Positions 9,131 through 34,007 of a DNA stretch of 64,000 nucleotides are shown here, piece by piece. The notes below the pieces were generated by a model. That model saw only the letters and a program-made list of their open reading frames with translations. It ran no database searches and had not been told where the DNA came from. Position numbers and translations under genes: made by a program. The stretch's first letter is position 1, and each line of letters begins with the position of its first letter. Source of the stretch: Thiotrichaceae bacterium (GTDB lineage: Bacteria; Pseudomonadota; Gammaproteobacteria; Eutrophobiales; Eutrophobiaceae); the NCBI GenBank assembly GCA_012960105.1, contig DUBV01000014.1, forward strand, positions 2,711 to 66,710, read 5' to 3'.

Positions 9131-9895
9131 CTAAATTTTTCGTAACAACAATACGGCATATTCTGATTTTGAATTAAGTATCACTGGATTAGAAAGGTCA
9201 TAGTATTCATCATAAGCATTAACAACCTCAAATACGGATGTCTTCTTTAGTAATTTTGTTAGTTGCTTCAATGTATAAGTTCTAAGTTGATAAATAGAAG
9301 TGTGACTTTCTTTTTCGCTATTAGTGTTAAGCAACACTTTTAACGTCTCCCTACGTTTCATTTTATCTAGCTCTAACATGGTCATTGCTGACTTAACTGT
9401 TAAACGCCCTCTTCTTGATGTCCACCGAGTTACTTTATTCAACACCGCTTTTTCAGGAATTAAATGTAAACCAAGAATATAGATCCCATTTTTCTTTAAT
9501 GCTTTTGATATTGTAATTAAATGTTGTTCTGCTTGTTTTTCCGACAACAAATGACGGAAGGTATCAACCGTACAAAAAGCACCATCATATTTATTATCTT
9601 TAACATGAAAATCAGCCATGTCGGCATTAAAGATATTCGCTTTAAGTTGATTGCGCTCTAATTTGTCCTTTAGATATGTCAACGCGGTTTCATTCAAATC
9701 AAAACCTGTGCAATCAAAACCTGTTCGAATAAGAGGCACCATCAATCTACCCGTGCCACAAGCAGGCTCCAATATTTTTGGACGTACCCCTTTACAATAT
9801 TGAGAAAAAACATTTTTTAGAAAAGCCAGTTCTTCTCTCATTTCATGTGAAAAAGAGACATCATAATAAGTCGGCAGACTGTACAAATCATCCAT
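9131..9895 (-). CDS. class I SAM-dependent methyltransferase, last gene of the pfa-ole operon
   Basis: Motif I ILEPACGTGRL and post-I acidic residue (GFDLN). The start is 14 nt after the PPTase stop. Confidence 0.7.
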   Translation of the reverse strand: MDDLYSLPTYYDVSFSHEMREELAFLKNVFSQYCKGVRPKILEPACGTGRLMVPLIRTGFDCTGFDLNETALTYLKDKLERNQLKANIFNADMADFHVKDNKYDGAFCTVDTFRHLLSEKQAEQHLITISKALKKNGIYILGLHLIPEKAVLNKVTRWTSRRGRLTVKSAMTMLELDKMKRRETLKVLLNTNSEKESHTSIYQLRTYTLKQLTKLLKKTSVFEVVNAYDEYYDLSNPVILNSKSEYAVLLLRKI

Positions 9896-9909
9896 TATGT
9901 TTTTATAAA

Positions 9910-10632
9910 TTATTGATGAATAATGATATCAATATTATTCTTACAACTCGCCAAGGCCATTTTATAGTTTTCAACATTCATTACGTTATAGCAATACCAT
10001 TGCTCGTTTATTAGTTTTGAAGAATCTATATCAACCTGGCACTTTATATTATCCTCTAGTGAAACAGAAAACCTATCGAGGCCAAAAGCAATACCCTTGC
10101 CTGTTGCTTTAATGAATGATTCTTTTCTTGTCCACGCACGATAAAACGCATCTAATTGTTCATCATTAGTTAAACAAAGCAGTTCTTCATTTTCTTTTTC
10201 ACTAAAGAATCTTTTAGACAATGATTGATAGTCTATTTTATGATTGATTTTCTCAATATCAACACCAACCTTATTATATAATGTTAATGCGACAAGAGCA
10301 TAATTGCCCGAATGTGAGATATTAAATTCAACTGATTTATTATTATATTTTTCTTCTATATATGGCTTTTTATGTTCGCCATAATAAATTTTAATTTCTT
10401 TGGCATCTATATTTAAAGCATGTGACAATAATTTTCTGCACACACCTCTTACAATAATAAATTGTTTTTTCTTTTCTTCGACTTTTAATTGTTCAGCCCT
10501 TACAACTTCATCTTCTGACAAATATGTAATTAGTTGAGAACAATCAAACAAATCTAGTTGTAATAAAAATATGTGTATTTCTGAATCGGATAATTCAATT
10601 CTAGATTCTAATAGCTTTGTAATATTTCTCAT
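9910..10632 (-). CDS. pfaE: Sfp-type 4'-phosphopantetheinyl transferase (PfaE-like)
   Basis: GVDIEKI and WTRKESFIKATGKG motifs. ATGA overlap with the preceding oleD stop. Confidence 0.8.
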   Translation of the reverse strand: MRNITKLLESRIELSDSEIHIFLLQLDLFDCSQLITYLSEDEVVRAEQLKVEEKKKQFIIVRGVCRKLLSHALNIDAKEIKIYYGEHKKPYIEEKYNNKSVEFNISHSGNYALVALTLYNKVGVDIEKINHKIDYQSLSKRFFSEKENEELLCLTNDEQLDAFYRAWTRKESFIKATGKGIAFGLDRFSVSLEDNIKCQVDIDSSKLINEQWYCYNVMNVENYKMALASCKNNIDIIIHQ

Positions 10633-11624
10633 TGAGTAGTATCAAATGCAAGAGATTCTTCAAGGTGTTTCATGCCCTCATCAATGCTAACTAGTGCTTG
10701 ATAGCCTAAATCCTGTTTTGCGGCAGTTAGGTCAAACCAGTGGGAGGTAGAGAGCTGCTTTGCCACAAACCTAGTTAATATTGGCTCGCTTTTAATATTT
10801 AATAATGTATATATTTTTTCCAGAATAAAGCCAATGATATAAGCGATGTTTGCGGGTATGGTTTTAACTACAAATGAGATTTTTGCGGCCACTAATATTT
10901 TATCTACCAAATCTATTAACCGAATTGGTTCGTCATTGCTTATAAAATAAACTTTTCCTGCACAAACAGCATTGTCTCCAAGTTTAGAGGCCGCAAGCAG
11001 ATGTGCTTGCACGGCATTATCGATATAACAAGAATCAATTTTCTTATTATTGTCTACTAATTTTAAACGACCTGATTTTGCTCTATTAATAACTCTTGGA
11101 ACCAGATGCGGATCGGCTGGCCCCCAAATCAAATGCGGTCTTAGAGATACTGTTTTTAGATTATTACTATTTGCATTAATAACAAGTTGTTCTGCTTCTG
11201 CTTTTGTTTTTTGATAGGCATTAAAAAAGTTTTTTACATAAGGTGCTGTCTCGTTAATCCCTTCTTCATCATGACCATCAAAAACAACACTAGGCGTACT
11301 GGTATAAACCAGATATTTAACTTTATTAATTCGACATGCTTCTAAAACATTTTTCGTGGCAATAACATTGGCTTGATAATAATCGTCATAGTCACCCCAG
11401 ACGCCAGCTTTTGCTGCAACATGAAAAATTACATCACATCCGCTAGCGGCTACATTGATATCATCAAGCTTAGTCAAATCTCCTTGTATAGTTTCAGCAC
11501 CAAGTTCTTTTAAAAAAGGATAATTTCCGCGTTGTATTGTTCTAACCGTATCTCCTTTTTCAAGTAATGCTTTAACGATAGCACTGCCAAGAAAGCCACC
11601 ACCACCCGTGACTAAGGCAATCAT
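10629..11624 (-). CDS. oleD: OleD-type NAD(P)H-dependent 3-beta-HSD/SDR reductase
   Basis: Rossmann VTGGGGFLGS and 3-beta-hydroxysteroid-dehydrogenase-like body. Fourth gene of an oleABCD-ordered set. The ATG at 11624 overlaps the oleC TGA (ATGA); the ORF track start at 11645 is an alternative. Confidence 0.8.
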   Translation of the reverse strand: MIALVTGGGGFLGSAIVKALLEKGDTVRTIQRGNYPFLKELGAETIQGDLTKLDDINVAASGCDVIFHVAAKAGVWGDYDDYYQANVIATKNVLEACRINKVKYLVYTSTPSVVFDGHDEEGINETAPYVKNFFNAYQKTKAEAEQLVINANSNNLKTVSLRPHLIWGPADPHLVPRVINRAKSGRLKLVDNNKKIDSCYIDNAVQAHLLAASKLGDNAVCAGKVYFISNDEPIRLIDLVDKILVAAKISFVVKTIPANIAYIIGFILEKIYTLLNIKSEPILTRFVAKQLSTSHWFDLTAAKQDLGYQALVSIDEGMKHLEESLAFDTTQ

Positions 11625-13270
11625 CTTAATTCTTCCGTGGCCCATTTTGACAAAGATTCTCTACCTATCTTGGCATTATGGCGAATATCAACAGGGAAAC
11701 CTGAATGAAATAATATATGTTTAATATTTCTAGTCTCTGGATGACTAGAGCCTATTACCATGAGTTCTTGTATCAAGTCAGCTTTATTGAAGCGTTTATG
11801 CTCCTGTTCCAGTTCAACGCAAATAACCGGTATTATTTCTCCATTGATACGTGCGCCAACCAATGCAGTGCGAAACACAAAAGGATGAGCATTAAATATA
11901 CCTTCACAACAAATGGTAAATAATATTTCAGATTTAGTAATCACACATTGATTCTTACGGCCGCAAAACCAAAGTCGATCTTGACCATCTATATAACCAA
12001 CATCTCCCATACGATGATAAAAACCATCTTCAGAACGTATCTTTGCTAACGCTGTTGCTTTATTACGATTGAAATAAGTACGCGTTACTTGTGAGCCTTT
12101 AACACAGATTTCACCAATTTTATTTACTGGCAATTCCAGTTCATCACTCCATTCGGAAATAACATCGTTATTTAACTTAATAATTCTCATGTCCAGATTG
12201 GAAACAGGTTGGCCGACACAAACACCTTTGCCATTAGCAGTATCCTTAGCAGTCTCTTTTAGTATTTCTTTGCTTCCAATTGAGCTAATCGGTAATGATT
12301 CGGTCGCACCATAAGGTGTAAATATCTGAGCATTATTGTTTAACAATGATTGAAATCTGTTTAGTACAGATGGTGCGACCGGTGCTCCTGCAGACAATAC
12401 ACGTTTTAATGAATCTAACTTTAGACCTTTGTTCTCTGCCCATTTTCCCACACGATTAAGTAAAGCAGGAGAACCAAACATATTAGTACATTTATACTGA
12501 GTGATTGCATCGATAATATTTTTCGGATCGACCGAACCCGGTTTGGTAAAGTCCATCATAGGTATAATTGACGTCATACCCAATGCAGGCGAAAACAAAG
12601 CGAATAAAGGAAAAGTAGCAAGATCAATTTCACCGGGTTGAATATTATAAAGTTGTTTCAATGCATCTACTTGTGCGGTGAAATTAGCATAGGTATAAAC
12701 CACACCTTTAGGTACACCGGTACTACCACTAGTAAAAAGTATCGCCGCAATATCTTCAGCCTTAGTATCAATTAACTTTCGCTGTGATGTCTTTCCAAGT
12801 TTTTTTATTTTGTTAAGATCTGTAACTAATAGATTTAATAATGATTTACTGCCGACAAGAACAGTTTTGCGTATTGTTTTTTTAGACCATCTTAATGCTA
12901 GTCGAGCCGAATGCGCTGTCGCATTACCAATAAAAGCCTCGGGTTCGGCTTCTTGCAAACATTTACCTAGATTTTTAATACCCATACCTGGGTCCACCGC
13001 AACAAGAACTGCCTCTAGTTTAAACAACGCGAAAACCAGTGCAAAAAAATCGAGGCCAGGTTTAACCATTAAAACCGTCCTTGTACCTTTCTTAATACCA
13101 AATTCTTCAAGACCATTTGCAATAAGATCACTGGTTTCGTCTAGTTGCTTATAGGTATAAGCAATATCATAAGGTTTGTTTTTTGATTTATTCTGTTTTA
13201 CAACCGCATATGTATCAGCTTGTTTTTTTGCCATTACTGGCAAATGTGATGCTATATTTGCCGTAATCAT
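11621..13270 (-). CDS. oleC: OleC-type AMP-dependent synthetase (beta-lactone synthetase family)
   Basis: Adenylate-forming motifs (FTSGSTGVPKG; GYIDGQDRLWFCGRK). 549 aa. Located between oleB-like and oleD-like genes. Confidence 0.8.
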   Translation of the reverse strand: MITANIASHLPVMAKKQADTYAVVKQNKSKNKPYDIAYTYKQLDETSDLIANGLEEFGIKKGTRTVLMVKPGLDFFALVFALFKLEAVLVAVDPGMGIKNLGKCLQEAEPEAFIGNATAHSARLALRWSKKTIRKTVLVGSKSLLNLLVTDLNKIKKLGKTSQRKLIDTKAEDIAAILFTSGSTGVPKGVVYTYANFTAQVDALKQLYNIQPGEIDLATFPLFALFSPALGMTSIIPMMDFTKPGSVDPKNIIDAITQYKCTNMFGSPALLNRVGKWAENKGLKLDSLKRVLSAGAPVAPSVLNRFQSLLNNNAQIFTPYGATESLPISSIGSKEILKETAKDTANGKGVCVGQPVSNLDMRIIKLNNDVISEWSDELELPVNKIGEICVKGSQVTRTYFNRNKATALAKIRSEDGFYHRMGDVGYIDGQDRLWFCGRKNQCVITKSEILFTICCEGIFNAHPFVFRTALVGARINGEIIPVICVELEQEHKRFNKADLIQELMVIGSSHPETRNIKHILFHSGFPVDIRHNAKIGRESLSKWATEELR

Positions 13271-13276: not shown

Positions 13277-14164
13277 TTAAACTAAAGGATTATTTTTCAG
13301 GAAAGTTTGAATAAGAGGAATAACTTCATCGCCCGCATCTTCGAGTAAATAATGCCCGGCATCAAATTCATGAAACTTGGCATCCGCCATGCGTTTCTTC
13401 CATTCGTTTAAATAATTAATGTCAAAAACAAAATCATTCAAACCCCAACAAACCAGCATCGGTAATTTTGAAAATTGTTGTAAATTTTTATCTACCTGGT
13501 CAACAACATCATAAGATTCATGTTCTTTATCCAAAGGTATATCTTCAACGAAACGTAAAACAGAAAAACGATGTGCCCAACTATCATAAGGTGAGAGATA
13601 AGCATTTTTTACATCCTTACTCATTGCTTGGCGTGTAACGCATTGAATTACACCACCTCGACAAAACGCATTTAAACCCTGGATCAATAAAGAACCAATC
13701 ACAGGTGTACGACTCAGTTTTAATTGCCAGGGAATTTGTTTCCCTTCGGGAATATGAAAAGCCGCCGTATTTGAAATAACCAAACGTTTAATCTTATCAG
13801 GGTATCTTGTGGCATAAGCCATCCCAATCATGCCGCCCCAGTCGTGAACAATTAAGGTTAAATTATTATCTACATTTAAACTGGACAATAACGCATCAAG
13901 ATCATCAACACGTTGTTTCAACGTAAATTCATATTCACCTTTAATAGGCTTATCCGATAAGCCCATACCAATGTGGTCTGGAACAATACAATGGTATTGA
14001 TTAATCAATGCAGAGAAAAGATGACGATAATAAAATGACCAGCTAGGGTTACCGTGTAACATAACAAGCGTTTCAGATTGCTCATTACCCCCTTCGAGAT
14101 AATGCATTCGCCTGTCATTAATTACTGCATAAGATGAGCTATCTGGGTAATCCGGAAAAGGCAT
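13277..14164 (-). CDS. oleB: OleB-type alpha/beta hydrolase (haloalkane-dehalogenase-like beta-lactone decarboxylase family)
   Basis: HGNPSWSFYYR, the nucleophile-Asp motif VHDWGG and a C-terminal DAGHYLLED His. 295 aa. Confidence 0.8.
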   Translation of the reverse strand: MPFPDYPDSSSYAVINDRRMHYLEGGNEQSETLVMLHGNPSWSFYYRHLFSALINQYHCIVPDHIGMGLSDKPIKGEYEFTLKQRVDDLDALLSSLNVDNNLTLIVHDWGGMIGMAYATRYPDKIKRLVISNTAAFHIPEGKQIPWQLKLSRTPVIGSLLIQGLNAFCRGGVIQCVTRQAMSKDVKNAYLSPYDSWAHRFSVLRFVEDIPLDKEHESYDVVDQVDKNLQQFSKLPMLVCWGLNDFVFDINYLNEWKKRMADAKFHEFDAGHYLLEDAGDEVIPLIQTFLKNNPLV

Positions 14165-14199: not shown

Positions 14200-15399
14200 C
14201 TACCATTCCCAACCAAGCATTAAGCAATTTAAACCACTGCCAATACCCAGGAAACTAACTCTATCGCCTTTTTTGAGAAATTGTCTTTGCTCAGCTATAG
14301 CCGCTGTTAATGGAACAGAAACCGTACCGATATTGCCAAGATATTTATATGTGCTGAAATCTTTCTCAGGATCAATGCCCAATTCTTTTAATATAGTATC
14401 GCGATGACCTTCGCCTACTTGATGGCAAATCACTTTATCAACCTGATCTCTGGCCCAACCCATTCGGGTTAAAAAAGTACCCCAGGTTTTAACACCTAAC
14501 TTGGCACCATGCTTTAAAACAGCAACAGAATCAGTAGACATGAACTCGGATAACGCAGCAGGTAATTTTTCCGAAGGCATAATATTAGCTAATGCAGGCG
14601 GTAATTTCTCACTGGTCATCACATCCTTAATTGCTGTTGGTAAAACTTCAGGTTCCATTACCTGATCAATTGCTGCCAATAACTTATCCGGCGAAAACAT
14701 CAAGTCACCTATCGCTTGCGGTGTTAATGTCACACCCCAACGACAAAGTTCATGAAATTCCGGTGCAGATTGATTCGCGCCACCAAGCAAACGATGCGTA
14801 TCTTTATTATCAAAAGAACCATCCGTCAGTAACACGGCTGCGGCACCTGAACCACCAGTTAAGGTTGCTAAAGATTGAGTAAACATCGTCATACTTTTAT
14901 CATTCAACATCCGCTCAATCATAATTTCAACGATTTCACGAGAACTCTCACAGGACACCACCATACCAGCACGAATTTGTTTCAATTCAATTCGATTGGC
15001 AATATCGATAATGCCATTCATCACACCCAGACAAGCATTGGATATGTCATAAATATTTGCATCTTGACCAATTCCTAATTGGGAAGCGACTGCACAAGCG
15101 GTTGCCGGTTCAAAATTTTCCCGACAAACACCGGTATAAACCAGCGCTTCAATATCTTTCGCCTCAACATTGGATTGCTCCAACGCTTTACGAGCTGCAG
15201 CTGCAGCACCATCAGAAAGCACATGGCCTTTTTCCCACCAACGACGCTCATTAATGCCAGTTAAGGCCTGTAATTGTCCAGGAGCGATATGTAATGCCTC
15301 ATACATCGGTAGCAGACGTTGCTCTAAATCTTCGGAAGTAATGACTACTGGCGGCAATTCATAGCCGATAGATTCCATTTGTACGCGGGAGTATTTCAT
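14200..15399 (-). CDS. oleA: OleA-type thiolase (head-to-head Claisen condensing enzyme) with a repeat insertion
   Basis: Active-site NACLG (Cys123), ICHQVG His and GNIGTVS Asn, plus the OleA-specific Glu in CRENFEPATA. The ATG overlaps the stop of the upstream megasynthase. At 399 aa it is longer than the roughly 340-350 aa I recall for characterised OleA. Confidence 0.8.
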   Translation of the reverse strand: MKYSRVQMESIGYELPPVVITSEDLEQRLLPMYEALHIAPGQLQALTGINERRWWEKGHVLSDGAAAAARKALEQSNVEAKDIEALVYTGVCRENFEPATACAVASQLGIGQDANIYDISNACLGVMNGIIDIANRIELKQIRAGMVVSCESSREIVEIMIERMLNDKSMTMFTQSLATLTGGSGAAAVLLTDGSFDNKDTHRLLGGANQSAPEFHELCRWGVTLTPQAIGDLMFSPDKLLAAIDQVMEPEVLPTAIKDVMTSEKLPPALANIMPSEKLPAALSEFMSTDSVAVLKHGAKLGVKTWGTFLTRMGWARDQVDKVICHQVGEGHRDTILKELGIDPEKDFSTYKYLGNIGTVSVPLTAAIAEQRQFLKKGDRVSFLGIGSGLNCLMLGWEW

Positions 15400-18300
15400 A
15401 GGGCGCTCATTCTAAGCGCAAAATCCTTCATCTGATAGATAATTCGTCCATCTACAGTCAAAAAACCATTGGCAATTATCGTTTTCGACTCATCATCAAT
15501 CTCAGTAATCACGGCCTGTACCGTAACTTGTTCATCTACAGGCAAAATTTGACCTCGATAGACCCATTGATGGCTCTGGTCGAGCGCCATACTATCAAGA
15601 GCAAACTCGCCAATTTCCAGCTCATCCTGCCAACGTTCCCAGGCAAATACCTTCAATAATTGCATAAATGACTCTAATCCTAAGGAACCTGGCCAAACTG
15701 GATCCTCAAAGAAATGTGCTTTAAAAAACCAGGCATCTTCCTTAACACTGGCCTTGCCTTCAATGAAACCAAGACTATTAGGCCCACCTTCGGGGTCGTA
15801 TAAGGAAATTTCATCGACCATGCGCATCATATTTGCAGGCAGTGGTGCATCGACAGGATAAGGAAATGATTGCCCTCTGGATTGCTCCAATTCTGTCGGA
15901 ACATAAGGTTCCGCATCACGTATTCCTATCTGCTCAGCCAAAGCTTGATGCGAGAAGAAACCAAAATTAGTGTTTCCTTTATAAACCATTCCTTGAGAAG
16001 AATGCATTTCGTAATCGTAATTCTGAATAATCATACCGCCTGATTGCGAAACACTGGTCATTTTAACTCGAGTCATCAAAGTACCAATATCAGGAGTGAC
16101 TCGAATAAATTGCGTCGCCCTACCACCCAGATTTCTAAATGAGATATCAATATCACTAGTTAATGCAGAACCTAAATATCCCGCTAACCAACCACACGGT
16201 TGCAAAGCAACTTCAAGCAAAACTGCAAACGGCATATAAGGCTGATTATCTTCTGTGAAATACCATTCATCCACAGGCACATCGTATTCTGCTTCAATAA
16301 CGCCGCCTGCTTTTAGAACCCATTGTTCACAATCTTTGATAGATACAATACGATCAAGAAACTTATAGGGTGGTCCCGGTAAGCGTGCAATCTTACGTTC
16401 ACTATCAAATACTTTATATTTATCACCAAAGGCATCCGAAGGTTTACCAATAGCAAAAGCAAGAATTGACTCGTTATCAAATAAAACTTGTTTTGTTTTC
16501 GTCGATTTCTTATTACTCCAGAGTGCTTCGAGTTTTTCTCGTTTCAAACCACTTAACTGCACCGACATATTCTTCATCTGCACGATCGCACGATGATCGC
16601 CATACATTAACGCTTCTGCTAACACATAAGGTGTACCATCATCTTGGTAGCCAATTTCTTTTAAGGTGATTTCATATTGAACGGCTTTGGTTGTTTCATT
16701 GACCTGACCTCGACATTTCAACTGACTGACTTCATCTATAATAGGTTCATAAACAAATTCATCTTCTTCGCCTATCCAACCCATGCGTAACAAATAAACA
16801 CGTAAGGTATGTAAACAACATTCGTACATTAACGTACCCGGCATCACTCGGTCATCAACAAAGTGACACGTTAAAAACCAATCATCAGCATGAATATCTG
16901 CTTCGCCAGTAATTTGACCGATACCAAAACGACCGCCAGCAGGATCAAGTTTGAGTATGCGATGAACTAAAGTCATTCGACCACTAGGTAAACCCACCGG
17001 TTTATTGAGTTCAATATTTTCAAATGTCTCACCAAAACAAGCAGCTAAATCACCAGTACGTAATGCTGCCAATTGTTCATCGCTATAACTTTCAACCTGC
17101 ATGGAAACTAGCTCTTTCCAATCAGCAGAAAACTTTCCTTGTTCTTGTTGTTTTTCTAAACTTGTTAGTACAATTCCTTTACCGGCATCGAGTTCTTGTT
17201 GCGTAAAGAATCCAGCACACCCTTTCGTCATGGTTAATACTGGTTGTCCATTAGATGTACCGACAAAATTAAAACGAAATAATCGCGTTTCATCCTGACG
17301 AAAGAATTCCTCTATCTCGATATCATATTGAATAGTTTCACCTGCTTTAGGCAGGGAACCATGAAAAGTTATTTTTGCATCAAGTAAACGATAAACAGCT
17401 AAACCTTTTGCGATATGATCAATACCTAAATATCCTGATAAAAATAAATCAGCCTGTCCTGCTTCAACAGCAATACAGGTTGGGATACGTCCCTGATCTA
17501 AATACCATGCTCCCGGCAACACATCATGTTCAGTAATTACACGACCTTTACTACTTGGGTTATGCATTAAGGAATCTGCTTCGCCTTCTATATCTAAAAT
17601 ACGATCAACCAACATCAAAGGTTCATCTGGCAAACGTACTCGTGTGGGGTACTGATCAATATCAGCAAATTGAGAACCAAGCATTTTACCAATCGAGCCG
17701 ATTGCAAACTCCATGCACTGTTCCCTGTCATATAAACACTCAACCTCTTCTGGCACCTGAGCTTGGACTTCTGAAACTACTGGCACCTGTTTAAAATCAA
17801 CATTAGTTAAATCAATATCATCGCCATTCAACAACTGCATTTGCATATTAATCGCTTGCGTAATTGTCTCCGTCATTCCCTGACTCACACGTAAAAATGT
17901 TTCCTGTGCTTGAGAACGTGCTAGTTCGGTTTGCTGCATTTGCTGAATGATTGGATTGAAATCACCATTCGCAACCTTGGAAAAACTAGACAAGGGCAAT
18001 GGTATAACACTCTCGGCAGCTTCAATCTTTTTGCTTTCTAATTCACTTACTTCTGGCTTTGTATCTTGTTGCGTATTCGGTGGCATAGGTATTTTGAAAG
18101 CTTCACCGCCGGTCTTCACACTAATATAGTTTTTATACTCAGCTTTTTGTTTCTTTTCATTAACATCTAATTTTGACAAATCAACAGCAACACCTTCGGC
18201 ATAAAGTCGTGCAAGTAACTGCAGCACATTATCAACACTGTCTTGTCCTTTAACACAAACTGCTTTTGCATGATGAGGTTTGTTGCTATCGCTTTGGTCA

Positions 18301-22073: not shown

Positions 22074-22105
22074 AATTATTTACTTCTTCTTTTCTTTTAC
22101 TTTCG

Positions 22106-23278: not shown

Positions 23279-23331
23279 AAGAATATGATAGTGACATTTT
23301 TTCTAAAATCCTTGAATCATGACTTATTAAG

Positions 23332-23445
23332 CTAAGTTGTTGAAAAGTTATAAAATGTGACAGGTTTATAGCCTGCTTGTGCTAAATGTTTACAATTATG
23401 TGAACCGATATAACCTGCTCCGCTTATTAAGAGAATATTTTTCAT
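23332..23445 (-). pseudogene. 37-codon 5' stub of a GalE-like NAD-dependent sugar epimerase
   Basis: Read from the sequence: MKNILLISGAGYIGSHNCKHLAQAGYKPVTFYNFSTT then stop. This matches the GalE Rossmann N-terminus (GxGYIGSH..C..L...G). The rest of the gene is absent. Confidence 0.6.
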
Positions 23446-23462
23446 CTTATTTATAGCATTAC

Positions 23463-24413: not shown

Positions 24414-24420
24414 GTCGAAC

Positions 24421-25479: not shown

Positions 25480-25500
25480 GAATTTAGTCTAATTAAAGAA

Positions 25501-25523
25501 TTAAAGGGGACGTTACCCTTTAA
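25501..25523 (-). terminator. small AU-rich stem-loop spanning the pfaA stop codon (possible weak terminator/attenuator before gmd)
   Basis: 8-bp stem TTAAAGGG / CCCTTTAA with a 7-nt loop. On the minus strand it is followed by UUCUUUAAUU. Only 3 G:C pairs. Confidence 0.25.
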
Positions 25524-28500
25524 ACGTTTTCTTTTTTATCTAGTTTATTTTTCTTGAATGCTGCTTGTAACGAAGCATCGCGTACGCATTCGTATCCATC
25601 CATTAGAGCGATCAACTTACCGTCACCATCAAGAAACTCTATTGCTGCTTTGGCTTTGTGAGCGGTATGCTCGTTTACTTCGGCAATAATTTTTGCACTG
25701 TCTTTTGGATAGTTACGTTGATATTGGCGATAACTTGCAATCGCTGTTGGTAACGAAGCACTATCATTTTCTTCGAAACTCCAGAGAATCATCATCTGGA
25801 ATGCGGAATCAAGAATTAGAGGATCAGTTAACCAGCCTGAACGTATCGGTTGATTCATCCAAGTTGATGGTTGCGCTGCTGCGCTTACATTGGCAACGAT
25901 GCCTTTATCACTACATTGTGTTACTTCTATAATGCCTTGTAGTTCTTGCCCATGAAATAACTGGCCATTATTGTAATATTCACCTTGTTTCTTTTTATAT
26001 GTCTCATTAACAGATTTTAATTGTGGCAATACATTTGATTCATAGTTATCAGCCAAAATCATTATTGCACTGGCATGTAATAATTCATCTGAATGTAATT
26101 CTACAGGAACAAGGGACACATCACCTTTATGTATAATTGTGCCTGCAAGGATTCTTAAATGAATATTTTCATCTGCATTTAATTTAATACCTTTTAAAAT
26201 GCGAAAATCATCGAAGCCCTGAAATTGCATACCAGGATTTAAATGTAATGCACCGTGAGCAAACCACTCGATGATAATGGCCATAGGTAAAACAGCCCGG
26301 CCATTAATTACGTGTGATTTCAGAAACGGATGAGAGCTGACGGAAAGATCACGTTCAAATGCTAATGATAAATTACTGCTATCTGCTTCTGATACTGAGT
26401 AATTAAATAGGGGTATCTTTTTAAGAAGATTTTCTGCCTCACCTAATATCACTGTTTCAACAGGACCATTAGATTCTATTTCTTGTATTAGATAATCAGC
26501 ACCGGCTTTTAAGCCAATAACGCCAACGCCCTCTTCGGCAAATAGTTTCTTTAGTGCCGGTGTGACCATGCCACCATCCCAAGGTCCCCAGTTAACCGAT
26601 AAGACTTTGCAATCTTTTCTATTTTTATTCTGACTAATGTTTTCTTGGGTCGCTTGTTTATTTAAAATTTCATTTGCAGCAGCATAATCAACCTGACCTT
26701 TACGACCCAGTCTTGCTGTTGTCGATGAAAATAACACCATGAGTTTTAATGCATCGCTACTTGTCGCTGACAATAAACTTTGCAGTCCTTCTACCTTGGT
26801 AGAGTAAACACGATTAAATTGTTCTTCTGTTTTGTCTTCTATTAGTCTATCAGCAAGTACACCGGCAGCATGTACTATTCCAGTAACGTTACCTAACTCA
26901 GTACGCGCCAGATTAATCACATTTGCAACAGCATCTTCATTGGTCACATCGACTGAGCTGTATTCTACTTTTGCACCTGTCTGTTCAATTCGTCCTAGTG
27001 TTGTTGTGATTTCTCGATTGGCGAGAATTGATTGATAGCGTTTTTCTAGGTCAGCAGGCCGAAGTTTTTCTTCTGTATTTTCCATTATGGCTTTCTTAAT
27101 ACTTGCTGCACTAGATAAAGACATTAACCATTCAGCTTCTGCTTCCGGTTCTGGACTACGACCGAGTAATAATAAAGAACATTGATATGTTTCAGCTAAT
27201 TTAACGGCAACTTCTGCAGTCACACCGCGGGCACCACCTGAAATAACGATTAAGTCTTCTTTGTTTAGTCGTTTATTTTCTTTTTTGTTTTGGGTGAGCG
27301 TTTCTTCTTCCAGTATTAACTGGCTACATTTACCATTTGATATGCCAACTTCCAATGGTCCCGCTAGAAAGAGTTCTTTCTGAATTAAATCGAGTGATGC
27401 AGAGGCTTGATTAATATCGATAGCTTTGCAATTAACTTCCGTCCATTCCTTGTCTGCTGTTTTAATAATGCCATACAAGCCTGCTTGTACAGGATTGCCT
27501 TTCTTAAATTTTTCAAATCCAAATTGACCACCTAACGTGGTAATTGCAGCGAGTATGCCTTTCGATTTTTTCAGACTAGTACTGCAACGCTGAATTAAGG
27601 CAAAGGTATCAAGTAAATATTGTTTATTTGCATCTTCTTTCGCATAAATAATAAGAGCACCTAGTTCATCGCTGGGTTCATTACTTGCTTCATCATCATT
27701 GCTTATTAATTTTGCTTTATAGCCTTTTCCTTGAAGTTCAGTGACTAGCTGTTTAGCGCGTTTGCCGCCATCTTTGGTAACCCATATTTCTTTGTCTTTG
27801 TTGAATTCTATCTGTTGACGCTGAGATTTATTATCAATGGCCACAACACGAACAACACTGCGGATAATTCTCGATTCTGTTTGTTTTACCTTAGCATCAA
27901 CGACAACATCAACAACTGGTGCCGGCTTATTAACACTAGACGCTTGCTCATCCATATACTCAACGATTTGTTGCAAGGTTTGTAATGCAGCAAGATCATC
28001 TGCGGACACTGTTGGCAAACTTGGCATTTTGTCTTGTAGTGCCGATAAGATTTCAACTCGCTTGATTGAGTCGATACCTAAATCGCTATCCAAATTCATT
28101 TCCAGATTTAACATGTCAACTGGATAACCGGTTTTGTCGGCAACAACTTCAAGTAGCACTTCTGATAAATTTGAGTCGCTTGTCGCTATTGCTGCTGGAG
28201 CTTGCTCTACTTCTGATACATTAAAGATATCAACAATCGACTGTAGTGTTTGCAAGGTTGCCATATCATCTGGACTTACTGCTGGTAGTTCAGGAATTTG
28301 TTCTTGTATTGCCGAAAGGATTTCAACACGCTTAATCGAATCGATACCTAAGTCACTATCCAGGTTCATTTCCAGATTAAGCATATCAACCGGATAACCG
28401 GTTTTATCTGCGACTACATCAAGTAAGGTGTTTGCAAAACCGCTAACAACATTTGTTTCTTGAGGGGCTACGGAAACTGAGGCTGTTTCTACAGAAACAA

Positions 28501-31500
28501 ATAATTCTGTAATAGAACGTAAGGTTTGCAATTGACCCAATTCATCAGGGCTAACTGTCGGTAATTCTGGCATCGCTTCTTGTAGTGCAGACATGATCTC
28601 AACACGTTTGATCGAATCGATACCCAGATCACTATCCATATTCATATCTAGATCCAGCATATCGATGGGATAACCAGTTTTTTCTGAGACTATCTCCAAC
28701 AAAACCTTATCAAAATTATTATTAACTTGAGCTGATGTTGTTGTAGTCGTTTTTGTTGCTGTACTCATAACCGCAGCTACAGGTCTTCCCGCAGCAATAA
28801 ATTCAACAATATGCTGCAAGAATTGGAAGGTACTCAATTCTTCAGGATTCACTGCTTGTGACCAAGGTAATTGTTCTTGTAAGGCTGAAAGAATTTCTAC
28901 ACGCTTGATTGAGTCAATACCCAGATCCGTATCCAGACTCATATCGAGACTTAGCATTTCTAATGGATAACCAGTTTTTTCTGATACGACATTTAATAAT
29001 AAATTGTTGATATCTACATCAGCATGTTCTTCAGCAATTGGCGCTGTCGATTTAATTTCAACAATTTCTTTAACAACAGTTTCCATCTTCGCTTGAACAG
29101 GAACTGCCTGTGCCTGAGTTGTCTGCGCTGGAGTTGCTTGTACTGATACTGGTGCGGCTAACGGCTGACCTGACATTAATCGTTGTTGTTGTTCTAACAA
29201 TGATTGTATCGATTTCTGTGCAGTTTCCTGTCCTTCAAGATACTGTTGATGCAAACGTGCGGTTTGTTCCTGCATTTTTTGTAACGCAAGAATACTTTGC
29301 TGCGTAGTTTGTAACAAACCACTGCTAGCAACAGTCGTACTTGTTACTGGCACTGTTTGTGTTGTGCTGCTTTTAGTGCTTGAAGAAATATTTTTTACAT
29401 CATTGTTCATAGTGTTAACACTTGCTGTTGGACTCTGTATATTTTTTGGCTTACTTGCAGGACGTGGTTTACGTGGCATCGTGTAGTTCGCACCACTAAT
29501 CGCAATCGTCATTGCTGGCTTCACATCTTTCGCTGGCCTTTCCAGTTCCGAACAAGCTCCATCCCATTTTTTAAGATCGAGTTGAATACCATTTGCAGCT
29601 AATGTAGCCAAGACAATCGCCAAATCATATTGACCTTGTTTTTTACCCACTGAGGCATCAACGGCAATTGCCGTGATAGGTTTATCTGCAAGTATCGATT
29701 TAATTAACCCAGTTAATGTTTTACCCGGACCTACTTCAACAAAGGTAGTCACACCTTCGGCAAATAATTTTTCAACTTGTTCTACAAAACGAACCGGAGA
29801 AGCTAGTTGATTAGCTAATAATTGCTTCACTGCTTTTGCATCATCTGGATAAGCATCGGTTGTTGTATTAGACAATACTTGAAAAGTATTTTTTGAAAAC
29901 TCAAATGGCTCTAGTGCTTCTGCAAAAGGTTTCGCTGCATCAGCAACAAAAGAACTATGGAATGCGGCTGCAACCGGTAATTTAATTGCACGTATTTTTT
30001 CTGCTTTGGCTATCTTTGCAAAGGTATCAACTTGATCTGTTGCACCAGATAACACTACCTGCGTGGGTGAATTATGATTCGCAATAATTAAATCAATTTT
30101 GTTTTCTTTTAATATTGATTCAACTTTTTCATACGCTGCGACCACTGCCACCATTGATCCGCGATCACCTTCGCCTGCCGCCATTAATTCACCACGAATT
30201 CGCGACAAACGATTTAAAGTGTCAGCGTTGTACATGCCTGCTGCTGATAATGCGGTTAATTCACCATAGCTATGACCAATCGCTGATTTTGGTTTTACTG
30301 AAAAATGATTTAATATATCAAGTGCACCTAGACTCACTGCACCAATGGCAGGCTGTGCATTTTGCGTTTGTCGTAGGGTTTCTTCTTGTTGTTTTTGATC
30401 TGCTTTAGAGAAAACGGAGATTGGATAAACGATGTCTCCGAGACTTTCTTTTCCAGTTGATTCTATAAACGTGTTGTTTGCTTGCTCTAATGCATTTAAA
30501 AATTGCGGAAACTGACAAGCCAGATCACGACACATCCCGGTGTATTGCGATCCTTGCCCAGGAAAAACAAAAGCAATGTTGTCGTTACATTTTTCGGAAC
30601 TGTATGCCACACCATCCGGTCTTTGCCATGCTGTTTCTGTTGAAGGCGCTAATTGTTTTTTAACATCGGCAATTAATTTATTAAGCTCTGTGTTAGATTT
30701 TTCTAAAACTATGGTCAGACGATGAGCAGCATCACTTTTAAAACTTTGGCACGAATCATAAACAAAGAATCTTAGTTCATTCCATGAATCGACAATGGAA
30801 GATGTGGGCAGTTGTTTTATTAACTCTTCTTTTGAGTCTGCACTTAATGCAAGAATTAATACATGACCATCCCATTCAATTTCTGTTTTTGTTTCTTCTG
30901 CTTCTTCCAATACACAATGAAAATTACTGCCGCCAAAACCAAATGAACTTAAACCTGCTCGACGCGGTGTCGTTTGTGTTTTTAACCACGGACGTTTAAC
31001 GGTATTTAAATAAACAGGTGATGTGCCGGGGTTAATAATTTCCAGTGGTTCATCAACTTTAATACTCGGTGGTAATACTTTATATTTCAAAGCCATTGCT
31101 GTTTTAATTAGACCTGCAACACCGGCTGCGGCTTTGGTATGTCCGATCATGGATTTTACTGATCCAATCGCACACCACGTTTCATCTGCATTATCTTCAG
31201 CGTAAACACCGGACAAGGCTTTTGCTTCAACCGCATCACCGACTGCGGTACCAGTACCATGCGCTTCAACTAACTCTATGCTTCTTGGTGATACATCCGC
31301 TTCACGATAGGCATTCCATATTGCTTTGGTTTGACCTGCTGCACTCGGTGCATAGATTGCATTACCTCGTCCATCTGATGAAGAACCGATACCACGTAAT
31401 ACTGCATAAATTTTATCGTTGTCACGTTTAGCATCATCCAAACGTTTTAATACAACCGCACCTATGCCTTCGCCTAATATTGTGCCATCACCTTCTTTGG

Positions 31501-32326
31501 CAAACGGACGACTATTACCTGTTGGTGATAAGGCTGGTGTTTTACTAAAACACATGTACATGAAGATATCGTTGAAAGTATCAACACCACCGGTAATTGC
31601 CATATCAACACGACCGGCATTGAGTTCCATCGCAGCCAAATGTAATGCGCTTAATGAACTAGCACAGGCGGCATCAACGACACAGTTAGTACCACCAAAA
31701 TCAAAGCGATTAGCAATACGACCTGCGGCAACATTACCTAATAAACCCGGAAACGAATTTTCTTGCCAAGGCACATAACCATCGGCAATACGTTGTACAA
31801 TTTCTTCAGTTGTTTCTGCATCGATACCCGCATCAGCTAAAGCCTTGCGCCATATCGGATGACCGAGTCTTGCACCTAATGGAATCACTAATTCTAAAGT
31901 ACCGGTCACACCCATAATGACGCTGGTACGATCACGATCAAATTCACGTCCATCACCAGCATCTTTCGCTGTTGAATAATTTGCATCTAATAGCGCCTGA
32001 CGTGTTACTACCATGGCGAGTAATTGCGTGGTATCGGTTGCTTCAATATTGTTTGGACTTAGACCATACAACAGTGGATTAAAATCTTGTGAATTAATAA
32101 AGCCGCCACGTTTAGCATAAGTCATGTCTGGTGCAGTTTTATCTGCATCAAAATAATCTTCGGGCTTCCAATGTGTCTTAGGGATATCACTTATCGCATC
32201 GACACCTTCGCGAATATTAGTCCAATACTCTTGCGGACTGTCTGCTTTTGGAAACAAGCAGCCTATGCCTACTATGGCGATTGGTGACATTTGTTGTTTC
32301 GTATTTTTGTTTTCTTTCTTAGACAT
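25520..32326 (-). CDS. pfaA: PUFA-synthase subunit, KS-AT-ACPx4-KR-DH (PfaA / Pfa2-like)
   Basis: KS DAACASSLSAL (Cys221) and AT GHSYGE (Ser686). Four LGIDSIKRVEI ACP motifs (Ser at aa 1139, 1238, 1330, 1420). KR ISGGARGVTAEVA. PKS-type DH HPFLKSHVINGRAVLP. Confidence 0.92.
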   Translation of the reverse strand: MSKKENKNTKQQMSPIAIVGIGCLFPKADSPQEYWTNIREGVDAISDIPKTHWKPEDYFDADKTAPDMTYAKRGGFINSQDFNPLLYGLSPNNIEATDTTQLLAMVVTRQALLDANYSTAKDAGDGREFDRDRTSVIMGVTGTLELVIPLGARLGHPIWRKALADAGIDAETTEEIVQRIADGYVPWQENSFPGLLGNVAAGRIANRFDFGGTNCVVDAACASSLSALHLAAMELNAGRVDMAITGGVDTFNDIFMYMCFSKTPALSPTGNSRPFAKEGDGTILGEGIGAVVLKRLDDAKRDNDKIYAVLRGIGSSSDGRGNAIYAPSAAGQTKAIWNAYREADVSPRSIELVEAHGTGTAVGDAVEAKALSGVYAEDNADETWCAIGSVKSMIGHTKAAAGVAGLIKTAMALKYKVLPPSIKVDEPLEIINPGTSPVYLNTVKRPWLKTQTTPRRAGLSSFGFGGSNFHCVLEEAEETKTEIEWDGHVLILALSADSKEELIKQLPTSSIVDSWNELRFFVYDSCQSFKSDAAHRLTIVLEKSNTELNKLIADVKKQLAPSTETAWQRPDGVAYSSEKCNDNIAFVFPGQGSQYTGMCRDLACQFPQFLNALEQANNTFIESTGKESLGDIVYPISVFSKADQKQQEETLRQTQNAQPAIGAVSLGALDILNHFSVKPKSAIGHSYGELTALSAAGMYNADTLNRLSRIRGELMAAGEGDRGSMVAVVAAYEKVESILKENKIDLIIANHNSPTQVVLSGATDQVDTFAKIAKAEKIRAIKLPVAAAFHSSFVADAAKPFAEALEPFEFSKNTFQVLSNTTTDAYPDDAKAVKQLLANQLASPVRFVEQVEKLFAEGVTTFVEVGPGKTLTGLIKSILADKPITAIAVDASVGKKQGQYDLAIVLATLAANGIQLDLKKWDGACSELERPAKDVKPAMTIAISGANYTMPRKPRPASKPKNIQSPTASVNTMNNDVKNISSSTKSSTTQTVPVTSTTVASSGLLQTTQQSILALQKMQEQTARLHQQYLEGQETAQKSIQSLLEQQQRLMSGQPLAAPVSVQATPAQTTQAQAVPVQAKMETVVKEIVEIKSTAPIAEEHADVDINNLLLNVVSEKTGYPLEMLSLDMSLDTDLGIDSIKRVEILSALQEQLPWSQAVNPEELSTFQFLQHIVEFIAAGRPVAAVMSTATKTTTTTSAQVNNNFDKVLLEIVSEKTGYPIDMLDLDMNMDSDLGIDSIKRVEIMSALQEAMPELPTVSPDELGQLQTLRSITELFVSVETASVSVAPQETNVVSGFANTLLDVVADKTGYPVDMLNLEMNLDSDLGIDSIKRVEILSAIQEQIPELPAVSPDDMATLQTLQSIVDIFNVSEVEQAPAAIATSDSNLSEVLLEVVADKTGYPVDMLNLEMNLDSDLGIDSIKRVEILSALQDKMPSLPTVSADDLAALQTLQQIVEYMDEQASSVNKPAPVVDVVVDAKVKQTESRIIRSVVRVVAIDNKSQRQQIEFNKDKEIWVTKDGGKRAKQLVTELQGKGYKAKLISNDDEASNEPSDELGALIIYAKEDANKQYLLDTFALIQRCSTSLKKSKGILAAITTLGGQFGFEKFKKGNPVQAGLYGIIKTADKEWTEVNCKAIDINQASASLDLIQKELFLAGPLEVGISNGKCSQLILEEETLTQNKKENKRLNKEDLIVISGGARGVTAEVAVKLAETYQCSLLLLGRSPEPEAEAEWLMSLSSAASIKKAIMENTEEKLRPADLEKRYQSILANREITTTLGRIEQTGAKVEYSSVDVTNEDAVANVINLARTELGNVTGIVHAAGVLADRLIEDKTEEQFNRVYSTKVEGLQSLLSATSSDALKLMVLFSSTTARLGRKGQVDYAAANEILNKQATQENISQNKNRKDCKVLSVNWGPWDGGMVTPALKKLFAEEGVGVIGLKAGADYLIQEIESNGPVETVILGEAENLLKKIPLFNYSVSEADSSNLSLAFERDLSVSSHPFLKSHVINGRAVLPMAIIIEWFAHGALHLNPGMQFQGFDDFRILKGIKLNADENIHLRILAGTIIHKGDVSLVPVELHSDELLHASAIMILADNYESNVLPQLKSVNETYKKKQGEYYNNGQLFHGQELQGIIEVTQCSDKGIVANVSAAAQPSTWMNQPIRSGWLTDPLILDSAFQMMILWSFEENDSASLPTAIASYRQYQRNYPKDSAKIIAEVNEHTAHKAKAAIEFLDGDGKLIALMDGYECVRDASLQAAFKKNKLDKKENV
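27950..29015 (-). repeat. tandem array of four ACP-domain repeats (about 270-297 nt period) inside pfaA
   Basis: The phosphopantetheine Ser codons lie at 28910, 28613, 28337 and 28067. The surrounding DNA is visibly near-identical between units, especially units 3 and 4. Confidence 0.85.
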
Positions 32327-32330
32327 AAAC

Positions 32331-34007
32331 TTACTCGGATAAATAATTCTTAATTGTTTCTAGTTGCATAGGATTAAATTGCGCTAACTCAACAGGAAGT
32401 TTAACGCCTTGTTTTTGTAATCCATTAATTCGAGATAACACGGCAGCTCCAAATAAAATATTCATCGCTACGGTTACCGTATTTCTGTTTTCTGCTGCTG
32501 ATAGAAATGTGTCACGCGTCCATTCATTAAACGCTCCCATCGCTGGACCACACCAAATTTGATAATCCACCTGACGATCAGCTATGCCGGCATTTGCCCA
32601 ACGCGAAGACAAACCCAAATACCAACGAAAAATTAATGCCATTTTGTGCTTAGGATCATTATTCGCTTTTTCAATCTGTCGTGGATCGCGTTCTGTAAAA
32701 AATTCTTCTGCTTTTTGCCAAACTTCAGCCAATGACATTTTAAATATTGTTTTTTCCAGATTAGCTTTTTCTACTTCAGAAATTTCTTCTATTGATGCAT
32801 ATTTTTTATAGATGTCATAAAGTTTGTTACCACGCATGGCAAACATCGTACCGCGTTTTAATACTTGTAACTTCACACCCATTTCAAACATATCAACTGC
32901 CGGCGCCATCGTGACATCCGCTTGTTCGGCATTGGCTAACATTTCTCTAACCACATCAGATGAACCGGATTCTTTGCAGGCTTGATTAACCGTACCGGTA
33001 ACAATGTAAGCCGCACCCATCGCGAAAGCACCTAATGCTGATGCAGGTGTTGCAATACCTCCTGCCGCACCTACTCGTAATGGATGTTGATAATTATATT
33101 TCGCCTGATATTGATCACGTAGAGATAACATCGTGGGTAATAAAGTAATGGCAGGTCGGTTATCGGTATGCCCACCTGAATCGGCTTCAACTGTTAAGTC
33201 TTGCGCCATTGGAATTTCTTTTGCTAACTCTGCTTCTTCTTGCGTAATAGCTCCCTGCTCTAATAATTCATTTAATAATTTTTCAGGTGGAGGACTAAAC
33301 CATTTGCTCGCAAGTTCTACTCTTGATGCTTTTGCAATAATTCGATTAGGAACAATAATATTACCTTGAGCGTCTTTATGAATTCCTTTCACACGGTAAC
33401 GCACGACCGGCAAAGTCAGTTTCATATAAGCTGAGGTTTCGACTAATGTCACATCGTATTTTAAATAAAGATCAACAACCGCATCTTCATGGCCTTTTTC
33501 ATTCGGGCTATAAATCAAATTATAACAATGTGTTTTATCACCTAATGACGTTTGCAAACGTTTAATCCCAATTTCTACTTCACCTAGCGACAAACCTGCT
33601 GCACCAAAAGAGGCCAACATGCCTTCGCGTGCTAATGCCTCGACCAATTCAACCGAAGCTATACCATTCGCCATCGAACCCGCCATATAGGGATAATCAA
33701 TATTATAATCCTGACAAAAACTTTGATCCCCCAAAGCTTTGATAGATTGAGCAGGTGAAAATCCACATAAACGATGTTCGTTGTCTCCACTATCGCTGCC
33801 AGCTAGCTGAATAGCGCCACCTAAGGCAATAGAAGGTTCCGATTCATTTTCAACAACACAAAATGGCACATCTAATTGACGCAACTGTTCCGGTAAGTTT
33901 TCTAAAGCAGAAAGTCGGGCATGACTATCCAACTGCCAAAGTGTTTGGGAATGGCTATCTGTATCCATCGAAACCGATGGACTAATAATATCTGGAATGG
34001 AACTCAC
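32331..34007 (-). CDS. pfaD: PfaD-type trans-acting enoyl reductase (FMN, nitronate-monooxygenase-like)
   Basis: 558 aa with a typical PfaD body. Its stop is 4 nt before the pfaA ATG. Starts at GTG 34007; an internal Met at codon 14 is an alternative. Confidence 0.85.
   Translation of the reverse strand: MSSIPDIISPSVSMDTDSHSQTLWQLDSHARLSALENLPEQLRQLDVPFCVVENESEPSIALGGAIQLAGSDSGDNEHRLCGFSPAQSIKALGDQSFCQDYNIDYPYMAGSMANGIASVELVEALAREGMLASFGAAGLSLGEVEIGIKRLQTSLGDKTHCYNLIYSPNEKGHEDAVVDLYLKYDVTLVETSAYMKLTLPVVRYRVKGIHKDAQGNIIVPNRIIAKASRVELASKWFSPPPEKLLNELLEQGAITQEEAELAKEIPMAQDLTVEADSGGHTDNRPAITLLPTMLSLRDQYQAKYNYQHPLRVGAAGGIATPASALGAFAMGAAYIVTGTVNQACKESGSSDVVREMLANAEQADVTMAPAVDMFEMGVKLQVLKRGTMFAMRGNKLYDIYKKYASIEEISEVEKANLEKTIFKMSLAEVWQKAEEFFTERDPRQIEKANNDPKHKMALIFRWYLGLSSRWANAGIADRQVDYQIWCGPAMGAFNEWTRDTFLSAAENRNTVTVAMNILFGAAVLSRINGLQKQGVKLPVELAQFNPMQLETIKNYLSE

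Follow-up and report, generated by a model that had tools for sequence, protein, structure and literature searches.

A published type of pfa-ole tandem cluster, lying within a hopanoid gene cluster of an uncultured marine gammaproteobacterium, probably makes a very-long-chain polyene hydrocarbon

What does a polyunsaturated fatty acid (PUFA)-type synthase (Pfa) make when its last gene overlaps the first gene of an olefin pathway (OleABCD)? The question is raised by a block of genes (9,131 to 34,007) in a 64,000-nucleotide stretch of DNA (the window hereafter; positions 2,711 to 66,710 of contig DUBV01000014.1, NCBI GenBank assembly GCA_012960105.1) from an uncultured marine gammaproteobacterium with a host G+C content of ∼38%, labeled Thiotrichaceae bacterium. 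An initial annotation of this DNA had proposed that the synthase and olefin genes form one expression unit for a very-long-chain polyene hydrocarbon, and implied that such a fusion was new. Our analysis supports this hydrocarbon as the most likely product, based on gene identities and on published Shewanella and Geobacter work, and finds that the cluster is an intact Type I pfa-ole tandem, an architecture that is published and common in genomes, and not a new kind of pathway. In transcription order, pfaD, pfaA, gmd, fcl, cysC, the pfaBC fusion, oleA, oleB, oleC, oleD, a phosphopantetheinyl transferase (PPTase) gene, and a methyltransferase gene all lie on the minus strand. Domains were called by Pfam and NCBIfam profile searches of the products of window open reading frames (ORFs), using curated bit cutoffs, and gave the following synthase, olefin, and adjoining genes:

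32331..34007, minus strand: pfaD, enoyl reductase (ER) subunit (TIGR02814, 635 bits, cutoff 449; Pfam NMO)
25520..32326, minus strand: pfaA, with ketosynthase (KS) and acyltransferase (AT) domains, four acyl carrier protein (ACP) domains, and ketoreductase (KR) and dehydratase (DH) domains, KS-AT-4xACP-KR-DH (TIGR02813, 1696 bits, cutoff 1010)
15396..22073, minus strand: pfaBC fusion (also pfaC below), 2225 aa, KS-CLF-AT-DH-DH, where CLF is the chain length factor (Pfam domains and motifs)
14200..15399, minus strand: oleA, head-to-head condensing thiolase, its ATG overlapping the pfaC TGA (PRK09258, 483 bits, cutoff 285)
13277..14164, minus strand: oleB, alpha/beta hydrolase of the haloalkane-dehalogenase type, predicted beta-lactone decarboxylase (Pfam Abhydrolase_1)
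11621..13270, minus strand: oleC, predicted olefin beta-lactone synthetase
10629..11624, minus strand: oleD, predicted 2-alkyl-3-oxoalkanoate reductase of the short-chain dehydrogenase/reductase type
9910..10632, minus strand: pfaE-type (Sfp/HetI) PPTase (Pfam ACPS and AASDHPPT_N; 86 bits to Bacillus subtilis Sfp)
9131..9895, minus strand: class I S-adenosylmethionine-dependent methyltransferase (generic family matches only)

The gene coordinates of the initial annotation agree exactly with the ORF list, and its identification of a Pfa synthase, OleABCD, a PPTase, and a methyltransferase is borne out by domains and motifs, with catalytic motifs intact in all enzymes checked (PfaA, PfaC, OleA, OleB, OleC, OleD, and the PPTase). 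The genes are closely spaced: pfaD and pfaA are 4 nt apart, and everything from pfaC to the methyltransferase gene is packed with overlaps or gaps of at most 35 nt. The ATGA in which the pfaC stop and the oleA start overlap is seen directly in the sequence, and the succeeding gaps of 35, 6, −4, −4, and 14 nt are correct provided that OleD starts at the ATG at 11624, the start used by public gene calls (its longest ORF begins at 11645). The gene identities, the intact motifs, and the tight and conserved pfaC-oleA linkage are direct observations.

The components expected of a Pfa secondary-lipid synthase are all encoded, namely a tandem-ACP PfaA, a PfaC with KS-CLF and two FabA-type DH domains, PfaD, and an Sfp-type PPTase. 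PfaA has Pfam domains for KS, AT, four PP-binding stretches, KR, and PS-DH, and carries the motifs DAACASS and HGTGT (KS), GHSYGE (AT), four LGIDSIKRVEI ACP sites (with the DSI Ser), and YAAAN (KR). The PfaBC fusion, whose start codon is TTG, has two ketoacyl-synt stretches, Acyl_transf_1, and three FabA stretches; its KS has the motif DAACSSS, its CLF (the second ketoacyl-synt stretch) is without the active Cys, and its AT has the motif GYSLGE and is PfaB-like (111 bits to the TIGR02816 PfaB family, under the 144-bit cutoff). Two FabA His motifs, HFVDDRVMPG and HFFEDPVWPG, are present. Because the final FabA-type DH ends at residue 2215 of 2225, PfaBC is without an AGPAT domain, and none is found among its Pfam matches. 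The annotated absence of AGPAT, with oleA in its place, is confirmed by these domain ends and by the position of oleA directly after pfaC.

The thiolase, for which a FabH-like placement had been named as one result that could overturn the initial annotation, is of the OleA type. Compared with PDB sequences, it scores 195 bits to Xanthomonas campestris OleA (3ROW, 4KU2, and others), vs. 70 bits for the highest-scoring FabH and 29 for Escherichia coli FabH, and it keeps the OleA-specific Glu. In an alignment of the window OleA, the OleA of 15 related loci, and X. campestris OleA, residues E97 (in EPAT), C123 (in NACLG), H326 (in CHQVG), and N356 (in LGNIG) correspond to X. campestris E117, C143, H285, and N315, and are conserved in 17/17 sequences. 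The OleABCD systems of X. campestris and Stenotrophomonas share this Cys, His, Asn, and trans-subunit Glu, and the same set of reductase, synthetase, and decarboxylase; however, they use saturated or branched acyl chains derived from type II fatty acid synthase, have no linked polyketide synthase-type synthase, and X. campestris OleA is without the inter-domain insertion found in the window OleA.

The remaining olefin enzymes are recognizable by family and motif. OleB has an HDWG nucleophile motif at 107 and a GHY His at 270, which match the Asp-nucleophile/His expectation; OleC has the P-loop TSGSTGVPKG, and OleD has GxxGxxG and YxxxK. Models for OleC and OleD built on Shewanella are the top-scoring specific olefin-pathway equivalogs for the window proteins. 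For OleC, PRK09274 reaches 712 bits (cutoff 478), and the best model beyond this one, NF045785, and NF045786 reaches just 213 bits. OleD scores 145 bits to the HpnA model, vs. 508 bits for the true HpnA of the window (41583-42605), and by this measure is clearly distinct from HpnA. Searches of PDB sequences with OleB, OleC, and OleD returned generic family members only, and no solved Ole homolog.

When one genome was scanned for each GTDB species, 53 OleA-bearing loci were obtained (relatives are given L-numbers below), onto which 12 window proteins were mapped for synteny counts; the pfaC-oleA junction was counted only in loci with at least 300 nt of DNA upstream of OleA (n = 49). Approximately 44 of the 53 are from uncultured marine Gammaproteobacteria species known as metagenome-assembled genomes, including complete chromosomes of 2.1–2.9 Mb, with OleA 77–93% identical to that of the window; NCBI labels of the relatives disagree ("Thiotrichaceae bacterium UBA973/UBA7359/UBA7357," "uncultured Enterobacteriaceae," "Gammaproteobacteria bacterium"). 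OleA identity is 71–76% in Pirellulales, Phycisphaeraceae, and Planctomycetaceae, and 52–56% in Geobacteraceae, Desulfuromonadales, Zavarzinella, and Sumerlaeota (55–56% in Geobacteraceae/Desulfuromonadales). Metagenomes hold hundreds of OleA relatives at 75–98% identity, and 22 public contigs, among them NCBI assembly GCA_029935975.1, carry the identical protein.

In 48/49 loci, spread over four phyla (Gammaproteobacteria, Planctomycetota, Desulfuromonadales, and Sumerlaeota), OleA has the PfaC C-terminus directly upstream, and the spacing from pfaC stop to oleA start falls between −4 and +25 nt for 40 of the 48 measurable genome loci (44/52 when four near-identical contigs of the source organism are added). 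The annotated pfaC-oleA coupling is real, and its junction is conserved. Within 10 kb after OleA, OleB is present in 38, OleC in 36, and OleD in 34 of 41 loci, and a PPTase follows in 26/32. Placement of oleB between oleA and oleC is kept in 38/41 loci, and this position supports its identity because no OleB-specific NCBIfam model matched (the best were haloalkane-dehalogenase models, below cutoff). The methyltransferase gene occurs in 13 of the 32 relatives with enough flank, often 0.6–2 kb from the PPTase; given this inconsistent linkage and its generic matches, it is not assigned to the olefin pathway, and its membership appears doubtful. Three loci (L024, L035, and L037) keep pfaC-oleA with no oleBCD within 10 kb, and OleA is therefore tied more tightly to the synthase than to its own pathway partners; in these, a ketone would be expected from OleA alone, and not an olefin, unless oleBCD sit elsewhere. 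In L035 and L037, the PPTase gene directly follows oleA.

This architecture has precedents. Shulse and Allen (2011; PMC3098273) used the pfaBC fusion, found in Geobacter, Desulfuromonas, Pelobacter, and Gemmata, to define a Type I cluster, and described ole genes as "often linked" to such clusters, and Yoshida et al. (2016; PMC4882568) described pfaD-A-B/C-oleA-B-C-D-pfaE "in tandem" in Geobacter bemidjiensis, a C31:9 producer. The window shares with the latter the gene order, with ER first, the AT inside the CLF subunit, and no AGPAT; all of it is on one strand, and the sole departure in order is a 3.4-kb insert between pfaA and pfaC. It differs from G. bemidjiensis in this gmd-fcl-cysC insert, in a 52-aa repeat insertion in OleA, and in its hopanoid-cluster setting. 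In Photobacterium profundum SS9, the pfa and ole operons are adjacent (Allemann et al., 2019; PMC6463001). A normal separation of pfa from ole, and with it the newness of their fusion, is not supported, in view of the Geobacter tandem cluster, P. profundum SS9, and the 48/49 loci. Instead, the proviso of the initial annotation that the operon might be already described and common applies, in view of the synteny survey and the published Type I cluster. Because the Geobacter order is published and the junction is found in 48/49 loci, the cluster is real but not novel.

A resemblance to the myxobacterial pfa1/pfa2/pfa3 genes had also been suggested. In that system, ER comes first, and KS-AT-ACPn-KR-DH is followed by KS-CLF-AT-DH-DH, likewise in the window; the myxobacterial Pfa3 has a terminal AGPAT domain, which loads the product onto lipid, whereas the window PfaC ends at the second DH. 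The resemblance holds for the ER-first order and for the AT in the CLF subunit, but does not extend to AGPAT, and the closest relative is the Geobacter Type I cluster. AGPAT is among the domains listed in the legend of Figure 1 of Yoshida et al. (2016; PMC4882568).

With Shewanella and Photobacterium, the window would share the chemistry in which Pfa supplies acyl chains and OleA links them, probably taking acyl-ACP directly (Allemann et al., 2019; PMC6463001). In that work, a 31:8 ketone was obtained from E. coli with oleA and pfaA-E, and the catalytically dead C123A OleA still cut EPA (eicosapentaenoic acid) about ten-fold; because dead OleA still reduces EPA, direct docking on Pfa was argued, the authors concluding that acyl-ACP serves as substrate for an OleA docked on the ACP domains of Pfa. 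These organisms differ from the window in having the order pfaA-B-C-D with a separate pfaB, an ole operon that is unlinked or merely adjacent, with no translational coupling to pfaC, and a pfaT thioesterase, which was not found in the window; EPA or docosahexaenoic acid (DHA) is also made.

In the predicted pathway, the PPTase would activate the four PfaA ACPs, and PfaA, PfaBC, and PfaD would iteratively assemble a polyunsaturated acyl-ACP. OleA, translationally coupled to PfaC, would take two chains directly and condense them head-to-head to a beta-keto acid, which OleD would reduce to a beta-hydroxy acid. OleC would then close the beta-lactone, and OleB would decarboxylate it to an all-cis polyene, most likely C31:9 hentriacontanonaene or a close analog. 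A Geobacter-type Pfa synthase that feeds OleABCD to give a very-long-chain polyene hydrocarbon, likely C31:9 or an analog, is in our view the probable function of this locus; we infer the transfer of chains from ACP to OleA, and the nature of the product, from the published Shewanella and Geobacter work.

Several points weigh against this assignment. The product is read from the genes of an uncultured organism, and chain length and degree of unsaturation are not readable from sequence. OleC matches NF045785 (650 bits) and NF045786 (632 bits) at full length but below their cutoffs of 850 and 900, the full-length OleD matches to NF042423 (470 bits) and NF042422 (399 bits) are under the equivalog cutoff of 580, and OleB is assigned mainly by family and context. 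The proposal of one expression unit is only partly supported: it stands for pfaC through the PPTase gene, and pfaD-pfaA is set apart by a terminator-like hairpin, three unrelated genes, and an AT-rich spacer of 590 nt between cysC and pfaC; pfaD-pfaA may be transcribed separately from pfaC-ole. A parallel output of PUFA to phospholipid is also possible.

In its stronger form, this last point becomes a dual output as in Shewanella, in which the synthase would make mainly EPA/DHA for phospholipids and OleABCD would skim 16:4n-3 into a minor hydrocarbon. Such a situation has been demonstrated in Shewanella and Photobacterium (PMC6463001), the PfaBC fusion has a PfaB-like AT domain, and the window carries phospholipid genes (two CDP-alcohol transferases and a phosphatidylserine decarboxylase). 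We nevertheless consider it unlikely: the block encodes neither AGPAT nor a PfaT-type thioesterase or acyl-ACP:lipid transferase, the overlap or close abutment of pfaC stop and oleA start is kept in 48/49 loci, and for G. bemidjiensis, of the same architecture, the review reports C31:9 and describes further pfa/ole metabolites as "largely unknown" (PMC4882568). Neither AGPAT nor a PfaT-type thioesterase or another off-loading enzyme was found in the block or the rest of the window, where the thioesterase search covered 57 of the 59 ORFs of at least 90 aa, nearly all of them outside the block. Because no such enzyme was found in the window, a hydrocarbon is favored over PUFA as the main output, and is plausible in that role.

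The interruption between pfaA and pfaC bears on a further alternative, that of a modified lipid. Its features, and those of the pfaC leader, are:

22664..25479, minus strand: gmd-fcl-galE remnant-cysC, an apparent passenger insert (NCBIfam; the 3.4-kb interruption includes the spacer)
24421-25479, minus strand: gmd (TIGR01472, 587 bits)
23463-24413, minus strand: fcl (NF047922, 477 bits)
∼23332-23445, minus strand: galE pseudogene remnant between fcl and cysC, 37 N-terminal codons (MKNILLISGAGYIGSHNCKHLAQAGYKPVTFYNFSTT) and then a stop
22664-23278, minus strand: cysC (NF003013, 305 bits)
25501..25523, minus strand: terminator-like hairpin at the pfaA stop codon, an 8-bp stem and then a T-rich tail (consensus match only)
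22101..22217, minus strand: microsatellites (ATTAAAA)9 and adjacent (GAAATT)∼10, of strain-variable copy number, which lie upstream of pfaC and stop 27 nt short of its start codon (TRF)

If the product were methylated by the adjacent methyltransferase, or fucose- or sulfate-linked via gmd, fcl, and cysC, these genes would belong to the pathway. They share its strand, the methyltransferase gene begins 14 nt past the PPTase gene, and gmd-fcl recurs at the same site in a subclade of relatives (L003, L004, L029, L031, L059, L062, and L063). Against this, the block has no glycosyl- or sulfotransferase, fcl and cysC are separated by a decayed galE, and nine relatives have pfaA directly adjacent to pfaC (L006, L007, L008, L016, L017, L024, L033, L041, and L042), for which reason the contiguous pfaA-pfaC is probably the ancestral state. 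Equivalent gaps in relatives hold unrelated genes (dinB, alpha-2-macroglobulin with pbpC, an ion channel, a GGDEF protein, and an aminotransferase), and the methyltransferase, which matches generic families only, is missing or separated in most relatives. A modified lipid is thus very unlikely, and the gmd-fcl-cysC insert looks like passenger DNA, as, probably, is the methyltransferase gene. A fortuitous juxtaposition of two independent pathways is effectively refuted because the synteny survey shows the junction conserved (48/49 loci in four phyla, the two genes mostly overlapping by 4 nt or lying no more than 25 nt apart).

Inserts elsewhere in the cluster are diverse. An intact GalE (2311-3306) occupies the position of the galE remnant in L004. 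In ten relatives (L003, L005, L009, L010, L012, L014, L015, L016, L017, and L041), oleA and oleB are separated by dinB (DNA polymerase IV), which is on the ole strand; the corresponding insert in L007 spans 8.6 kb and includes alpha-2-macroglobulin and pbpC. Other inserts, either at this site or past the PPTase gene, encode an ion channel, a GGDEF protein, a choice-of-anchor protein, and a class III aminotransferase. In the gammaproteobacterial lineage, the ole operon is a hot spot for unrelated insertions, and passengers are evidently tolerated at the locus. The gmd-fcl-cysC or oleA-oleB inserts were also considered as tailoring genes and rejected, being a miscellaneous set that includes a pseudogene remnant.

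The sequence between the insert and pfaC is variable. In the cysC-pfaC spacer, a 48-codon ORF resembles, by eye, the C-terminus of a different gene upstream of pfaC in L055. Contigs 99.8–99.98% identical to the window over 18–21 kb differ in the microsatellite array, which has 9 heptamers and 8 hexamers in the window and 9 and 6 in L054; L056 has a variant hexamer, the L056 and L057 contigs begin inside the array, and in L055 the array is missing, with other DNA upstream of pfaC. This leader may act as an expression rheostat, or its changes may be merely neutral variation. Terminator-like sites are enriched in 21900-25700 (8 found vs. 2.3 expected); of these, we draw on the pfaA-stop hairpin alone, as a consensus match. 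An Rfam scan of the whole window gave zero matches, and promoter scans gave site counts no higher than the shuffled expectation.

The window OleA has 399 aa, vs. ∼347 aa in Geobacter-type enzymes, and contains the following element, identified by alignment:

14539..14694, minus strand: lineage-specific OleA insertion of four tandem 13-residue repeats, residues 236-287 (52 aa)

The insertion site is the loop joining the two thiolase halves. The repeat units are SPDKLLAAIDQVM, EPEVLPTAIKDVM, TSEKLPPALANIM, and PSEKLPAALSEFM (consensus ∼xSEKLPxALxxxM), with a 13-residue periodicity of Pro and Met and moderate amphipathicity; no tandem repeat was found in the insertion at the DNA level, and the repeat shows in the protein only. 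The repeats are present in sequences of the gammaproteobacterial clade, Pirellulales, and Phycisphaeraceae, and were not found in Geobacter-type, Sumerlaeota, or X. campestris OleA; Zavarzinella OleA has a partial insertion of 23 residues, approximately two repeat lengths. Among the 150 best of 274 family representatives (E ≤ 1e-30), almost all alignments break at OleA residue ∼223, and one representative (the divergent P0123) has an unrelated insertion in the same loop. An AlphaFold2 model from a 37-sequence alignment (mean predicted local distance difference test score 51, predicted template modeling score 0.39) was too poor to locate the insertion. The 65-residue stretch that holds the repeats (residues 223-287) has a net charge of −5, and this acidic charge argues against a role as a simple ACP-attracting patch.

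Full-length OleA of L042 (Pirellulales) and L043 (Phycisphaeraceae) share the four-repeat insertion, the L053 (Planctomycetaceae) sequence being partial, and the PfaC of L042 is only 49% identical to that of the window. The distribution suggests a transfer between Gammaproteobacteria and Planctomycetota, involving either oleA or the entire cluster, the genes of which would then have diverged to uneven degrees.

The surroundings of the block consist largely of hopanoid genes:

2589..7913, plus strand: hpnL (TIGR03476, 252 bits), hpnI (TIGR03472, 413 bits), hpnJ (TIGR03471, 762 bits), hpnK (TIGR03473, 353 bits), all above cutoff, and a CDP-alcohol phosphatidyltransferase gene
7954-8370, minus strand: MarR-family regulator
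8517-9026, plus strand: cytochrome P460, which with the regulator lies between the methyltransferase and hpn genes and is conserved there in relatives
34296..42605, plus strand: squalene synthase-like gene, shc, hpnG, PhyH-family gene, hpnN, and hpnA (profile matches)
38216-38962, plus strand: the PhyH-family dioxygenase gene, conserved between hpnG and hpnN (best NCBIfam match methylphosphonate hydroxylase, 177 bits, far under the cutoff of 500)

On the right-hand side, TIGR01507 (790 bits), TIGR03480 (840 bits), and TIGR03466 (508 bits) are above cutoff, and HpnG scores 169 bits (cutoff 187). The pfa-ole block thus splits the hopanoid (hpn) cluster, with pfaD and the squalene synthase-like gene divergent across 288 nt. 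The setting recurs in close relatives: P460, MarR, and the CDP-alcohol transferase with HpnK, or HpnL, are found downstream of the methyltransferase gene in L006, L008, L009, L016, L017, and L029 (in L017, the methyltransferase gene is missing and the hopanoid-side junction follows the PPTase gene instead), and HpnN-PhyH-HpnG-Shc-squalene synthase adjoins pfaD in 7/7 metagenome loci whose PfaD identity is 68% or more, but was not found beside pfaD in a relative with 62% PfaD identity. Our search of the accessible literature found no paper mentioning hopanoids together with pfa and ole.

One speculative extension is that polyolefin and hopanoid synthesis are integrated in a lipid island of ∼40 kb, with the 288-nt region as shared control, OleA with its repeats as a dedicated off-loader, and output tuned by the microsatellites. 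We regard this as rather improbable. If true, the island would be an "ordering lipid plus fluidising lipid" module under joint regulation, its expression switching at the level of strains.

Beyond the published architecture, the added interest of the locus is modest, and lies in its hopanoid surroundings, the repeats inserted in OleA, and the hypervariable leader of pfaC. A widespread, uncultured marine gammaproteobacterial lineage that also encodes hopanoid synthesis, with the cluster in about 40 species-level genomes of the reference set, now joins the likely producers of polyunsaturated hydrocarbons (e.g., C31:9), and the cluster of this lineage bears on the origin of such lipid biomarkers in seawater and sediments. 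Furthermore, the near-universal abutment of pfaC and oleA, even where oleBCD have moved, gives comparative support to the published proposal that OleA takes its substrates directly from the Pfa ACPs.

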